DNA of 64,000 nucleotides from Candidatus Saccharimonadales bacterium (lineage in GTDB: Bacteria; Patescibacteriota; Saccharimonadia; Saccharimonadales; UBA10212). A program made the translations under genes and the position numbers. Of this stretch, positions 6,154 through 48,539 are shown piece by piece. The notes beneath the pieces are model-generated. The model did not search any database, had not been told where the DNA came from, and saw only the letters and a list, made by a program, of their open reading frames with translations. Location of the stretch: the NCBI GenBank assembly GCA_040900055.1, contig JBBDZU010000002.1, positions 18,425 to 82,424 on the forward strand. Reading direction: 5' to 3'. How positions within the stretch are numbered: position 1 is the stretch's first letter; each line of letters starts with the position of its first letter.

Positions 6154-6184
6154 AAAAAACTCCCCAGGATTGGGGAGTTTTTTG
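6154..6184 (+). terminator. rho-independent terminator of the RRM protein gene
   Basis: AACTCCCCA-ggat-TGGGGAGTT followed by TTTTTT, 17 nt after the stop codon. Confidence 0.8.
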
Positions 6185-16154: not shown

Positions 16155-16622
16155 TTATTTCCTGAAGTGTTTCATACCGCTAAACCAAACCACCGCTAGG
16201 CTAGCTATGGCGGTGCCCGCTACCAGGTAGGTTTGGGCTTTTGAAAGTTCTGTCCAGATTCCAGAATCGGTGTAGTTAACTATGCCGGCCTGGACTAGCG
16301 CTGGGCCAGCTAGTAGGGCCGATACGGCTCCGGCTCCCAACCCAATAGCAACTTGTAAAATAAATAGCGGGCCGCGCCATACGCTTTTGCGACTAAGAAT
16401 CAAAGTTAGCACCAGCGGTACTAAGATTAGAAAAATATTAATCTGGCTAAAATCGGTCCAAACTCCAGCGTCATTTAATAATCCTTGGATATCGCTGGTC
16501 GCAAACATGGCTGTAATAAATCCGGCACATAGGCTCAAAAAACCTAATGAGGCGTTACTTTTAAGAAAATAAGTCAAAAGGGCCGGCGCTAAAATTATTA
16601 AAACCAGAATAATTTCTGCCAT
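16155..16622 (-). CDS. hypothetical polytopic membrane protein
   Basis: 155 aa with four to five hydrophobic helices. No family recognised. Confidence 0.5.
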   Translation of the reverse strand: MAEIILVLIILAPALLTYFLKSNASLGFLSLCAGFITAMFATSDIQGLLNDAGVWTDFSQINIFLILVPLVLTLILSRKSVWRGPLFILQVAIGLGAGAVSALLAGPALVQAGIVNYTDSGIWTELSKAQTYLVAGTAIASLAVVWFSGMKHFRK

Positions 16623-16695
16623 GCGCTAATTTTAGCACAAGCACTTTCGTACTCTCTCTAAGCAAATACTCATCTATGAATGCCCTCCGACTCCT

Positions 16696-16735
16696 CGTAT
16701 ACTCACGTACTAGTATACTAGTACGTGAGTATACG
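16696..16735. repeat. perfect 40-nt palindrome (copy 1 of 2)
   Basis: CGTATACTCACGTACTAGTA|TACTAGTACGTGAGTATACG, with no mismatch and no loop. It lies between rimK (stop 16819) and the 16622 gene start. The 34-nt core recurs at 48017-48050. Confidence 0.9.
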
Positions 16736-16818
16736 TAGAAGAGGATCTTAGATTAGAGATTGGTGCTTAGCAACTTAATAACGAGGATAAAGGGGTGCGG
16801 TCAAGAGCTAGCGCATTT

Positions 16819-17736
16819 TTAAGCGCCGACGCGGTCTTTACGGCGTCGAGCCTTGGCATTACGCTCTACGTATTCGATAACCTTTTCAACCACATTACGG
16901 CCAGTGACTTGCTCGATGCTTGACCCCGGGCTGGAGTTAACTTCTAGCACCAGCGGACCGCGCTTGCTGCGAATTAGATCTACGCCGGCAATGCTAAGCC
17001 CCATGGCTTTAGCGGCTTTGACGGCAACTTTGCGTTCTTCGTCCGTTAGTTTAATGGAGGTGCCTGTGCCACCTTGGTGTATGTTGGAGCGAAATTCTTC
17101 TTCCAAGTTAAGGCTTTGACGCTTCATAGAAGCAACAACTTTACCACCGACCACATAAGCTCTAATGTCACTGCCCTCGGCTTCTTCTATGTACTCTTGG
17201 AGTAGGATGTTGGTGCCTTCTTCTTCCATCAAGTAAAAGCCCTGAAGTACCGACCGGGCGGCTTTACGAGTTTCGGCCAAGACCACGCCGCGACCGTGAG
17301 TCCCACGGGCTAATTTGATGATAATCGGTAACCCACCAAGCTCCTCGATTATGTTGTCCACATCGGCCATACCACGCGAGAAAATAGTTTTAGGAATACC
17401 AATACCGGCACGGGCAAGCAGCTGGATACTGCGGAGCTTGTCTCGGGAACGCACAATGGCAATCGAACTAGCCGTAGTAAAGACCCCCTGCATTTCAAAC
17501 TGCCGTACAACAGCTGAGCCATAACGCGTATTGGAAGAAGCAATGCGAGGGATAATAGCATCAATACCTGACAAAACTTCACCGTTATACAAAATTACCG
17601 GATTATTTTGCTGAATACGGGCTTCGCACTGCAGATAGTTAATAACTTGCACATCATGGCCCCTTTTTTTGGCCTCTTCTACAAGCCTCTTTGTCGAGTA
17701 GTTGCCAGGACCTTTGGATAAAATGGCTATATTCAT
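16819..17736 (-). CDS. rimK: RimK-family ATP-grasp alpha-L-glutamate ligase
   Basis: MNIAILSKGPGNYSTKRL start and ATP-grasp motifs (IIKLARGTHGRGV, EVNSSPG). The track ORF starts 16 codons earlier at 17784 and would overlap the upstream gene. Confidence 0.88.
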   Translation of the reverse strand: MNIAILSKGPGNYSTKRLVEEAKKRGHDVQVINYLQCEARIQQNNPVILYNGEVLSGIDAIIPRIASSNTRYGSAVVRQFEMQGVFTTASSIAIVRSRDKLRSIQLLARAGIGIPKTIFSRGMADVDNIIEELGGLPIIIKLARGTHGRGVVLAETRKAARSVLQGFYLMEEEGTNILLQEYIEEAEGSDIRAYVVGGKVVASMKRQSLNLEEEFRSNIHQGGTGTSIKLTDEERKVAVKAAKAMGLSIAGVDLIRSKRGPLVLEVNSSPGSSIEQVTGRNVVEKVIEYVERNAKARRRKDRVGA

Positions 17737-17740
17737 GATA

Positions 17741-18196
17741 TTACTTTCTTTGGTAACGATACTTGGAGCCTTTTGCAGCGTCAACTAAAAAGCCGTGGCG
17801 CCTTAAAAAGCTTCGTCCTATTAAGACGCCTTTCATCATAGTACTGCGGTCGGCCAAGCTGATGTTTATAGGGTACTGAACACGCCGGATAACAACCGTG
17901 GTTGGAACAATGTAGCGTGTTTGGATTATGCCGTTAGAGCTGCGCACTTCCTTTTTTTGAAAACCAACTACAGTAATGCGTGGCTCTTTACCATAAGAAA
18001 GAAAGCTGACAGCCTTTTCTCCTGTAGGCAATAGCTCTTCTTTAATGCCAGTAGCGTGAAGAGCGCCAGAAAGAGCGCCGGTATCAACCTTGGCAATAAC
18101 ATCAATAACGCCAAAGTCCGGAAAGCTGACTTTCTCAAAAGCCCCGATAAGTTTGCGCATACCTCTAAATTTGAGCATATCTCTGTATAATACCAT
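17741..18196 (-). CDS. RimK-associated retropepsin-like aspartic protease (DUF785 family)
   Basis: 151 aa. AKVDTGA aspartic-protease signature, C-terminal LIGRSFLR..FLVD, and the typical position immediately upstream of rimK. Confidence 0.75.
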   Translation of the reverse strand: MVLYRDMLKFRGMRKLIGAFEKVSFPDFGVIDVIAKVDTGALSGALHATGIKEELLPTGEKAVSFLSYGKEPRITVVGFQKKEVRSSNGIIQTRYIVPTTVVIRRVQYPINISLADRSTMMKGVLIGRSFLRRHGFLVDAAKGSKYRYQRK

Positions 18197-18219
18197 AATT
18201 AAGGTATATATGCAAGAGG

Positions 18220-18780
18220 TTAGACGCGGCTTACTAGCTCGGGCAAGCTAAGCGTCCCGCCAAGCTCAGGGTGAAACTGGGTAGCCAGTAGTGGTCTTTT
18301 TTTATGACTAATTACTTCTATGCCAGAGCCAGAATCGGCCAAAACCTCGAAGCCCGAGGGCGCCGCTGTGACTCGCCATTTATGAGCCTCGAACTGTTTG
18401 AGCTTTTTATGTAGCAGAATCTGCCTACCCTTTCGGCTTAAGCTGATGTTGTCATAACCAGAAAGCAGGCCAGGCAATTCCTCGACGCTCTGCCCGTAAG
18501 CTTTGGCGATTACTTCAAAACCCATGCAAATGCCAATAATTGGTTTGGGACAAGACAAAACGAAGTTCATTTCGTCTTCATACCACAGTTTGCCCGGCTT
18601 ATTAACATCGTCAATCTCTTGGCCTTCGCCGCCACCACCAGACAAAATTACTAAGTCCTTGTCCTGATAATGAAAGTTAATGCCGGGTTTATAAGTTTGA
18701 ATTTCAACTTGGTGGCCAGCCAAGGCTGATTTTAAATGGCTAAGGTGCTGAGTTTGGTTATTGACTAGCAGTATTCGCAT
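18220..18780 (-). CDS. class I glutamine amidotransferase-like protein
   Basis: 186 aa. Nucleophile elbow GICMGFE and the His-Glu pair in QFHPE. Confidence 0.75.
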   Translation of the reverse strand: MRILLVNNQTQHLSHLKSALAGHQVEIQTYKPGINFHYQDKDLVILSGGGGEGQEIDDVNKPGKLWYEDEMNFVLSCPKPIIGICMGFEVIAKAYGQSVEELPGLLSGYDNISLSRKGRQILLHKKLKQFEAHKWRVTAAPSGFEVLADSGSGIEVISHKKRPLLATQFHPELGGTLSLPELVSRV

Positions 18781-40398: not shown

Positions 40399-40449
40399 TC
40401 AGTCCAATAGTTGGATGTCCAAGTATCTAAGCGATCCTGCTCGGGAGCT

Positions 40450-40548
40450 TTTATTTGGTTTTGCTGTGTCGGACTTCCCTGGGATGGGTTACCGTTGCGG
40501 CACAGTTCCGGATTTGCACCGGATTCCAGCAATCTAATTGTTAATAAA
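40450..40548 (-). promoter_or_regulatory. cobalamin-type riboswitch aptamer (compact form)
   Basis: The minus strand contains GGAATCCGGTGCAAATCCGGAACTGTGCCGCAACGGTAA...CCAGGGAAGTCC...CAGCAAAACC. Nested helices: TTTATT/AATAAA, TTGCTG/CAGCAA, CTGTG/CACAG, CCGG/CCGG, CCG/CGG. It matches the conserved cobalamin-riboswitch core as recalled from the btuB leader. No GCCACTG B12 box. Confidence 0.75.
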
Positions 40549-40574
40549 CCCAATATAACACGTCAGCTTTGGAC

Positions 40575-47328: not shown

Positions 47329-47808
47329 CTAAGCTGCGTATTCCCCGCTTTTTTTGCGGTGCTTTATAGCAGTTAGTCGCGGTATATATGCTCGGGCTGC
47401 GGCATCTAGCCCTAATACTTTTAAGGCTCCAATTAGCACATATAATTGGTCGAGTTCACGTTCTAAAACTTTAGGGGAGTCTTCGGCATCTTTAAAAAAT
47501 ACTTCTACTTTATTGACCAGCCATTTCTCTTCGCTGGTGTTAAGCTGACGCGGCGTAATATCGGTAATTTGCTTTAGGCCGGATGGTTTTACTACTTCTA
47601 ACGATCGCGCAGACCGGTCGCGTTTATTAAGGTGACCACGCTTTATCAAATTATTAACGTGCAGGCTGACAGTTGCCACCGAAGTGTAGTTTAGACCCCT
47701 CATAATCTCACGGTAGCTGGGGCTGTAGCCGCGACTAGCTATAAAACCTTCGATAAAGGTTAGCAGCTCTTTTTGCTTCTTAGTTGGTCTAATTTTGGTA
47801 CTTTCCAT
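47329..47808 (-). CDS. LexA-N-terminal-domain (winged helix) regulator lacking the S24 peptidase domain
   Basis: PTKKQKELLTFIEGFIASRGYSPSYREIMRGLNYTSVATVSLHVNNLIKRGHL matches the LexA DNA-binding domain pattern. The C-terminal ~90 aa has no Ser/Lys dyad (GDSM) region. Start uncertain: ATG 47808, or TTG 47859 as in the track. Confidence 0.7.
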   Translation of the reverse strand: MESTKIRPTKKQKELLTFIEGFIASRGYSPSYREIMRGLNYTSVATVSLHVNNLIKRGHLNKRDRSARSLEVVKPSGLKQITDITPRQLNTSEEKWLVNKVEVFFKDAEDSPKVLERELDQLYVLIGALKVLGLDAAARAYIPRLTAIKHRKKSGEYAA

Positions 47809-48016
47809 TAGTTTAAATATACCAATTTTGTAAAATCGTGCTTCAGCAGAGCTTTGCAAAATTGAGAGGAGAAAGCGACTTGAGGTTGAGAGTAAGCAAG
47901 AATTACGAGCTTACGAAAATCGAGCGTCGATCCCGACGACACACCGCTATTATAACTGCCTAATCCACTCTGGGCATCAATACTCCCTCACATCTCCATA
48001 CTCACCCGACTCACAT

Positions 48017-48050
48017 ATACTCACGTACTAGTATACTAGTACGTGAGTAT
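48017..48050. repeat. perfect 34-nt palindrome (copy 2 of 2)
   Basis: ATACTCACGTACTAGTA|TACTAGTACGTGAGTAT, identical to the core of the 16696-16735 palindrome. It lies 40 nt after the gtrA stop and 160-210 nt upstream of the LexA-like gene. Confidence 0.9.
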
Positions 48051-48089: not shown

Positions 48090-48539
48090 CTAGCGCAGGT
48101 GCTTTTTGGCAGGATGGCGCGGAGCCGGTATTCTGATTGGGAAAACCCAAAAGCGGTACCAAAAGTAATTCCAAACCGTAAAGAAACCGGCCGATATAAA
48201 GTTGCCAATATATGGTGTTATCCCTGCCAGCCTTAAGCCGTAGATAATAAAGAAGTCCATCACAAAATCAATTAAGGAAATTACTATGTAGCGGCCGCTG
48301 ACCTGGCCAAAATGGCCAGATAAGTGAGGGTTACGAAATACCCAGTATCGTTGCAGAATAAAGTTAATAGCCCAGCCAAAAATATTAGCGCCTAGCTTGG
48401 CCCACCACAGGCTCCAACGTAAACCGGACCAAAGTAGCGCAAATACCAAATAACCGCTCCAAAAATAAGCTCCGCCGGAAATTAAATATTCAATAAACTG
48501 GATTAATAGCTCACGGCTAGATTTTGATAACTTTTGCAT
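48090..48539 (-). CDS. GtrA-family membrane protein
   Basis: 149 aa, four TM helices. LIQFIEYLISGG and QRYWVF motifs are typical of GtrA. Confidence 0.75.
   Translation of the reverse strand: MQKLSKSSRELLIQFIEYLISGGAYFWSGYLVFALLWSGLRWSLWWAKLGANIFGWAINFILQRYWVFRNPHLSGHFGQVSGRYIVISLIDFVMDFFIIYGLRLAGITPYIGNFISAGFFTVWNYFWYRFWVFPIRIPAPRHPAKKHLR

Follow-up and report, generated by a model that had tools for sequence, protein, structure and literature searches.

Two palindromes and the genes around them

The 64-kb stretch of Saccharimonadales DNA analysed in this study (termed here the window) contains two long perfect palindromes, the only ones of their kind within it, each of which lies--as the initial annotation had stated and as the gene calls confirm--in a gap between co-directional minus-strand genes. 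Palindrome 1 is preceded by a gene for a RimK-type ATP-grasp ligase (Pfam RimK; 16819..17784, minus strand), the stop codon of which lies 84 nt before the palindrome, and is followed by an ORF for a multi-pass membrane protein of 155 residues (WD877_00305; 16155..16622, minus strand). This ORF has no Pfam family and its sole match among 5.8 billion proteins is itself; hence, it is an orphan gene. A role for it as a tryptophan transporter was considered and rejected, inasmuch as it is an orphan lacking both Pfam and NCBIfam support. The co-directional cluster upstream of palindrome 1 (16819-18780) consists of the RimK ligase, a putative ATP-dependent zinc protease (PF05618) and a class-I glutamine amidotransferase. 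Palindrome 2 is preceded by a gene for a GtrA-family membrane protein (48090..48539, minus strand; stop codon 40 nt before the palindrome) and followed by a gene for a LexA-like protein of 159 residues (WD877_00450; 47329..47808, minus strand), which has a LexA DNA-binding domain and no peptidase domain.

Direct inspection of the sequence confirms that palindrome 1 is a perfect 40-nt dyad without a spacer (16696-16735), the two halves of which are CGTATACTCACGTACTAGTA and TACTAGTACGTGAGTATACG. Palindrome 2 is a perfect 34-nt palindrome (48017-48050) with the same sequence as 16699-16732. The exact direct identity between the two loci, given earlier as 34 nt, in fact spans 35 nt (16698-16732 = 48016-48050), of which 34 are palindromic. 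A 30-mer of the palindrome had no matches in 100 shuffles of the window, and a search for weaker copies within the window (at most three mismatches to 18-, 22- and 30-mer patterns) revealed none above chance. The suggestion that the flanks are partly conserved as well did not hold up: the low-coordinate flanks yield a local alignment score of 24, as compared with 19.6 +/- 3.7 for shuffled sequences (77 of 500 shuffles scored as well), and for the high-coordinate flanks 39 of 500 shuffles align as well, so that neither pair exhibits significant homology. Thus the repeated unit is essentially the palindrome alone. A 55-nt tail common to both copies was also considered and likewise rejected.

Folded as RNA together with its flanks, palindrome 1 attains -38.7 kcal/mol (z = -8.2); the 40-mer folded as DNA attains -18 kcal/mol. 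As had been pointed out, no T-run follows either palindrome on either strand, and a terminator scanner made no call; the stem is stable and the U-tract is absent, and with regard to the U-tract the earlier dismissal of an intrinsic terminator is correct. The source genome nevertheless uses ordinary terminators, as is indicated by a canonical bidirectional intrinsic terminator at 6154-6183 (AAAAAACTCCCCA-GGAT-TGGGGAGTTTTTT, with A/T tracts) near a tRNA cluster. No Rfam family was matched at palindrome 1 or palindrome 2; elsewhere in the window, a cobalamin riboswitch was found at 40445-40563 on the minus strand (RF00174; 33.9 bits, which is barely over the gathering score). A public short-read contig from the same sample as the window (L134; Logan SRR27977660_1020328, sample SRR27977660) stops inside palindrome 2, at window position ~48021, which is where a break would be expected if the 35-nt repeat disrupts k-mer assembly graphs.

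A consensus scan revealed no -35/-10 pair in the direction of the genes at either palindrome, and thus neither exhibits the overlap with a recognisable sigma-70 promoter that an operator would be expected to show. The candidate promoter elements of both downstream genes come no closer than about 80 bp to the centre of the respective palindrome. For the membrane ORF, an extended -10-like element read from the sequence, TGCTAAAAT (16629..16637, minus strand), occurs 6 nt before the ATG at 16622; if functional, it would constitute a leaderless promoter some 80 bp away from the centre of palindrome 1, and the consensus scan found no -35/-10 pair there (16629-16637). For the LexA-like gene, TGGTATATT at 47816-47824 is an apparent extended -10 element; such elements are found 6-7 nt before the ATG. 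In addition, about 140 nt upstream of the ATG of this gene there is a minus-strand stretch (47924-47954) consisting of TATAAT (47949..47954), AGCGGT, a small hairpin (GTCGTCGGGATCGAC) and ATTTTCG. Because its TATA(A/G)T..AGCGGT and ATTTTCG pieces recur in a syntenic locus of a relative (L108, discussed below), this stretch probably provides the LexA-like gene with its promoter and leader, at about 80 bp from the centre of palindrome 2; it may serve as a leader or attenuator.

Fit of the palindromes to the Trp repressor operator

The central 18 bp of both palindromes are GTACTAGTATACTAGTAC (termed here the 18-mer core, which is contained within the palindrome sequence ATACTCACGTACTAGTATACTAGTACGTGAGTAT) and the central 20 nt are CGTACTAGTATACTAGTACG. 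The published motif for the Trp repressor (TrpR) is TGTAcTnGTnnACnAgTACA, which has GNACT half-sites 8 bp apart (PMC9413887). Except for the outermost pair, CGTACTAGTATACTAGTACG fits this motif at every specified position, and the sequence GTACT-N8-AGTAC, which occurs at 16707-16724 and at 48025-48042, conforms to the half-site consensus GNACT-N8-AGTNC. Moreover, the core is embedded in a regular array: within the 40-mer, [A/G]TACT begins at positions 4, 12 and 20 and its mirror image, AGTA[T/C], at positions 17, 25 and 33. This amounts to three overlapping [A/G]TACT-N8-AGTA[C/T] sites offset from each other by 8 bp, which together span positions 4-37--that is, exactly the 34 nt common to both copies. 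In palindrome 1 the central site (16707..16724), which coincides with the 18-mer core, thus stands between a left (16699..16716) and a right (16715..16732) outer site, both of the form ATACT-N8-AGTAT; the half-site and its 8-bp spacing are those reported for TrpR in PMC9413887. Palindrome 2 contains the identical three sites, at 48017-48034, 48025-48042 and 48033-48050. On either strand the central TATACT can be read as a -10 hexamer, though it has a convincing -10 appearance only where TTGACA precedes it. GAGTAT/AGTAT repeats in the downstream flank were considered as extra half-sites and, being out of the 8-bp phase as judged by eye, were rejected.

The palindromes resemble the trp operators of E. 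coli (trpEDCBA, aroH and trpR) in that the core fits TGTAcTnGTnnACnAgTACA, its GNACT half-sites are in 8-bp register and its CTAG steps recur every 8 bp. Three TrpR dimers bind to the trpEDCBA operator of E. coli, and at the E. coli trp promoter the centre of the operator doubles as the -10 element, which is the same layout as that of the CPR-like TTGACA-N17-TATACT loci described below. As with E. coli TrpR, there is room for tandem dimers, the binding of which to one operator is documented (PMC8745587). On the other hand, the dyad centre here is AT rather than the TA of E. coli; the array here forms a perfect 34-40 bp palindrome; and, unlike the E. coli operators, the window copies lack a recognisable promoter and are not beside trp or aro genes or trpR. 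Another point of comparison is HisR (YerC), a member of the TrpR family in Firmicutes of fewer than 100 residues that is often autoregulatory and that recognizes a 20-bp palindromic operator (PMC9413887). Here too a palindromic operator would be tied to a small TrpR-family protein; however, the HisR consensus, cacTTTAnnnnnnTAAAgtg, is unrelated to the core described here, and the protein encoded at one of the loci considered next (L006) keeps the TrpR-type recognition helix, IATxTR.

The core and TrpR-family genes in other genomes

The 20-mer CGTACTAGTATACTAGTACG is present in four other Patescibacteria species genomes, with 1-3 exact copies per GTDB species genome; the source MAG (WD877_*) is absent among the GTDB representatives with a match. 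The 18-mer core occurs in at least 120 metagenome contigs, and the counts derived from these are lower bounds. Sorting the 107 non-redundant 18-mer sites among the matches listed reveals three groups, two of which are promoter-associated. In the first kind (17 non-redundant loci among the matches listed; GC 0.34-0.56 and mostly CPR-like) the exact 18-mer lies at the 5' edge of an ORF for a Trp_repressor protein (PF01371; Pfam E = 1e-10 to 1e-22). Typically the arrangement is TTGACA-N17-TATACT and the ATG comes 1-6 nt past the core, so that the trpR-like gene is leaderless and the operator overlaps its promoter. In the second kind (18 non-redundant loci among the matches listed; GC 0.55-0.71) TTGACAat-core-att promoters of genes for GntR-family regulators (PF00392) contain this 18-mer. 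Hence two unrelated regulator families, TrpR and GntR, appear to use one operator sequence, and the sequence alone does not name its binder. The GntR genes with GTACTAGTATACTAGTAC between their -35 and -10 elements encode proteins of ~135 residues and include those of L035, L036, L052, L053, L058, L060, L061, L078, L100, L104, L121 and L123, among others.

In the third group the symmetry extends well beyond the core. Among the matches listed, about 24 sites, to which both window copies belong, have palindromes extending at least 7 nt per side. Extension lengths are bimodal (among the matches listed, 0-4 nt in 80 sites and at least 8 nt in 24), with an upper mode of exactly 8, which gives 34 nt. 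The arms of the 25 long palindromes among the matches listed read, from position -8 to -1, A(0.86) T(0.84) A(0.64) Y Y A(0.80) R C(0.72), and this consensus, ATAYYARC, repeats the 8-bp unit ATACTAGT in degenerate form. Many long copies are perfectly symmetric for 10-16 nt per side, which is more than the 34 bp explained by three dimers. The ORF pairs flanking the 23 long-palindrome sites examined among the matches listed are co-directional in 12 cases, divergent in 5 and convergent in 5, the remaining site being partly inside an ORF. In the convergent cases L043, L086 and L090 the flanking ORFs look real; the palindrome of L043, for instance, has a RecX-like ORF (so named by eye) on one side and an unannotated ORF on the other. 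The proteins flanking these 23 sites share no family except TrpR, and thus provide no sign of a conserved regulon. Such mixed orientations and non-conserved neighbours are not what a classical promoter operator predicts. The first eight copies examined (the two in the window and six in genome contigs) are all located 9-84 nt past a stop codon.

Within the 64-kb window both tblastn and profile searches revealed no TrpR-family ORF, and the 15 kb beyond its left edge contain neither a palindrome site nor a trpR gene. L108, a locus of a relative, is syntenic with the window at 47-50 kb, where it shares the Wzy_C-like and GtrA genes and a 73%-identical LexA-like gene. Next comes a gene for an 84-residue TrpR-family protein with a promoter, TTGACAccaGCGTACTAGTATACTAGTATACTgatATG, and an operator, GCGTACTAGTATACTAGTATAC; a 38-nt palindrome of the same class as those in the window occurs 40 nt past the stop codon of this gene and is followed by a small ORF. 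The window has no TrpR-family gene at the corresponding position. L109 repeats this trio of TrpR-family gene, long palindrome and small ORF. In L129 a 34-nt palindrome, ATACTATCATACTAGCGTGCTAGTATGATAGTAT, which lacks the exact 18-mer, overlaps the start codon of a TrpR-family gene, and in L022, which is among the 17 loci, a divergent intergenic region of ~70 nt contains a perfect 34-nt palindrome, 26 nt ahead of a TrpR-family gene. The small proteins encoded after the palindrome in L108 and L109 are weakly similar to each other (30% identity, E = 0.02) and show no similarity to that of L129. Other TrpR homologues have CTAG arrays at 8-bp spacing on their promoters, the L129 palindrome being one such array.

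TrpR homologues form 31 Saccharimonadales-like clusters, one of which is named Saccharimonadales, and a 60%-identical homologue heads a trpR-trpC-trpB-trpA-trpE-trpG-trpD-trpF operon. The CPR-like and Saccharimonadales proteins score higher against the NCBIfam model for TrpR (TIGR01321) than against that for YerC/YecD. Alignment to E. coli TrpR structures, together with the contact-residue list of PMC9413887, indicates that the recognition-helix residues (I79, A80, T81, T83 and R84) are identical to those of E. coli TrpR in L006 (GIATVTRGS), nearly so in L109 (GVSTVTRGS) and partly changed in L108 (GVSTVGRGT), the last of which keeps R54, R84 and G85 in the alignment.

A further feature of some relatives is a conserved ORF of 24-26 residues, rich in Trp codons (..QQGAWW[NH]SH..WE..), directly after trpR (L129:10255-10335, L131:350-424 and L133:1786-1863). 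The encoded peptides are MKNRILLASFGQQGAWWNSHESWELV (L129, where the start codon overlaps the trpR stop codon), MNKLFTILGKQGAWWHSHYTWELV (L131) and MNNQLPRSYSQQGAWRNSRYTWESY (L133). In each case a canonical terminator, consisting of a GC stem and a T-run, comes next, followed by the next gene, which is not a trp gene: a 95-residue ORF and a HAD hydrolase gene; a PPDK-like gene; and an ORF of no assigned family and a luciferase-like gene, respectively. Judging by its sequence features, this combination of ORF and terminator resembles a Trp leader-peptide attenuator of Saccharimonadales-like genomes. The space after trpR in L108 and L109 is instead taken up by the palindrome, the mini-ORF being truncated or read through, which lends circumstantial support to the block proposed below. 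At plentiful tryptophan both devices--the palindrome in L108 and L109 and the leader-terminator in the relatives--would lower downstream expression.

A proposed tryptophan-dependent block and its alternatives

It had been proposed that the dyad is an operator for a dimeric DNA-binding protein, and this part of the proposal is the best-supported reading, given the match to the TrpR operator and the co-occurrence with TrpR-family genes. Specifically, with a probability of roughly 60%, each palindrome consists of three overlapping sites for a homodimer of the Trp-repressor family (PF01371) that would be encoded elsewhere in the genome and would block transcription crossing the site. With L-tryptophan as co-repressor, up to three TrpR dimers would bind side by side, and the resulting tight complex of protein and DNA would separate rimK from the membrane-protein gene and gtrA from the LexA-like gene. 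Because neither palindrome overlaps a likely downstream promoter, the most likely output would be a tryptophan-dependent block of transcription crossing the site--that is, a roadblock or insulation. Repression may extend to a weak promoter that lacks a -35 element and is formed by the central TATACT, and the ability of the perfect dyad to fold into a hairpin may strengthen the block. A TrpR operator array is of a known kind; what would be new here is the Saccharimonadales host, the unusually long and perfect form, and the non-promoter position. An extension of this reading, offered tentatively as a minority view, is that the perfect 34-50 bp TrpR 'super-operators' of Saccharimonadales are not promoter operators at all but portable, orientation-independent, tryptophan-dependent transcription blocks that have been copied into intergenic regions; if so, a reduced genome would be using an amino-acid repressor as a ligand-gated terminator that acts genome-wide.

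In an alternative explanation structure comes first: the hairpin (in RNA) or cruciform (in DNA) would act as a factor-dependent or U-tract-less bidirectional terminator, as an insulator or as a stabiliser of mRNA 3' ends, and the TrpR-operator sequence would be an unused inheritance from a duplicated trpR operator. The very stable hairpin, the location of the eight first-examined copies just past stop codons, the copies between convergent genes, the bimodal extension lengths with symmetry beyond 34 nt in many copies, and the position of the L108 and L109 palindromes where relatives have a leader peptide and canonical terminator are all in keeping with this. We nevertheless consider it unlikely: there is no T-run on either strand, yet this genome and its relatives use canonical GC-stem and T-run terminators; the apex of the stem is base-perfect across distant lineages and the arms follow the 8-bp TrpR unit instead of varying freely; and at the five long-palindrome copies between divergent genes there is nothing to terminate. 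Alternatively, the palindromes could be small dispersed or selfish repeats of the REP or MITE kind, copied around the genome without a regulatory role. The initial annotation had taken copy number and position as a means of telling such repeats from operators, and here the outcome is mixed. The copies are few (two in 64 kb and, for the exact 20-mer, 1-3 per species genome), so that the copy number is regulon-like, but their positions include every intergenic orientation, with unrelated neighbours, as is the case for REP/BIME elements, which likewise are intergenic, stem-loop-forming repeats past genes in any orientation context. Two identical 35-nt copies 31 kb apart, an insertion-like pattern of presence and absence at the gtrA/lexA-like junction among relatives, and arms that are lineage-specific but common within an assembly also fit a mobile repeat. 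REP/BIME elements, however, are imperfect, number in the tens to hundreds and are associated with RAYT transposases, whereas the copies described here are perfect, number 1-3 per genome and have a transcription-factor operator at their core; moreover, neither terminal repeats nor target duplications nor significant flank homology could be seen, none of the copies was seen to adjoin a transposase or RAYT-like partner, and viral contigs yielded 0 matches to the palindrome sequence. Such an origin without a regulatory role therefore seems to us rather improbable.

Two other regulators might be the binder instead of TrpR. One is a winged-helix regulator of the GntR/YtrA type encoded elsewhere in the genome, since the autoregulatory operators of such proteins in high-GC bacteria include the identical 18-mer between -35 and -10. 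The 18 loci at which this is seen, though, all have a GC content of 0.55-0.71; their sites lack ATAYYARC arms (with the exception of the divergent-promoter case L078); and no such gene, YtrA included, was found in the window by a profile search of all ORFs or beside the core in any low-GC locus carrying it, so that this is a highly improbable binder of the window palindromes. The other is the LexA-like protein itself, for which palindrome 2 would be an autoregulatory operator: the palindrome is 209 bp upstream of the gene, the protein carries a DNA-binding domain, and TrpR-type palindromes are also found near the gene in L108. This was the binder that had been put forward first, and it is not borne out; indeed, we regard it as very remote, because the motif is not conserved upstream of orthologues. 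The family is near-universal in Saccharibacteria, yet no copy of the palindrome occurs upstream of the gene in L108, L135, L137, L139 or L141, and in the sequence examined no LexA-like gene is found near palindrome 1 or at some 20 further long-palindrome loci. In L135, L137, L139 and L141, which represent two other lineages, the LexA-like gene abuts gtrA without a spacer, and there is no core-like sequence (at most four mismatches) within +/-10 kb of it.

The LexA-like protein is a conserved core regulator of Saccharibacteria. It accounts for more than 7000 protein clusters at ~70-75% identity, lacks the S24 peptidase domain and is usually encoded directly after Wzy_C-GtrA. At the place that palindrome 2 occupies in the window, the junction in L108 (L108:3255-3335) has a different inverted repeat, with 21-nt arms (GAGGTCTGTCCTTGCAAAAAG/CTTTTTGCAAGGACAGACCTC) and a loop of ~40 nt. 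Given palindrome 2 in the window, this different repeat in L108 and the lack of a spacer elsewhere, the gtrA/lexA-like junction seems to collect inverted repeats.

To our knowledge, how Saccharibacteria and other CPR bacteria regulate transcription has hardly been charted, and a full-text literature search pairing Saccharibacteria with TrpR found no paper. Saccharibacteria are epibionts widely regarded as auxotrophic. A recognisable TrpR regulon--as suggested by an operator almost the same as the one in E. coli, by a trpR-led trp operon in one lineage and by candidate Trp attenuators in others--would provide a testable handle on how an epibiont senses an amino acid that is possibly host-derived. 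The long symmetric copies located off promoters raise the questions of whether a classical repressor can function as a ligand-gated roadblock and of how such sites are copied. More generally, an 18-mer shared with the GntR regulators of unrelated bacteria is a caution for motif-based regulon prediction.

In L128 (10001-16610) a Saccharimonadales-type TrpR homologue comes first in a complete trpC-B-A-E-G-D-F cluster, and a gene for DAHP synthase is found at the start of the locus, ~10 kb upstream of the cluster; together these suggest that some members of the group may make tryptophan.
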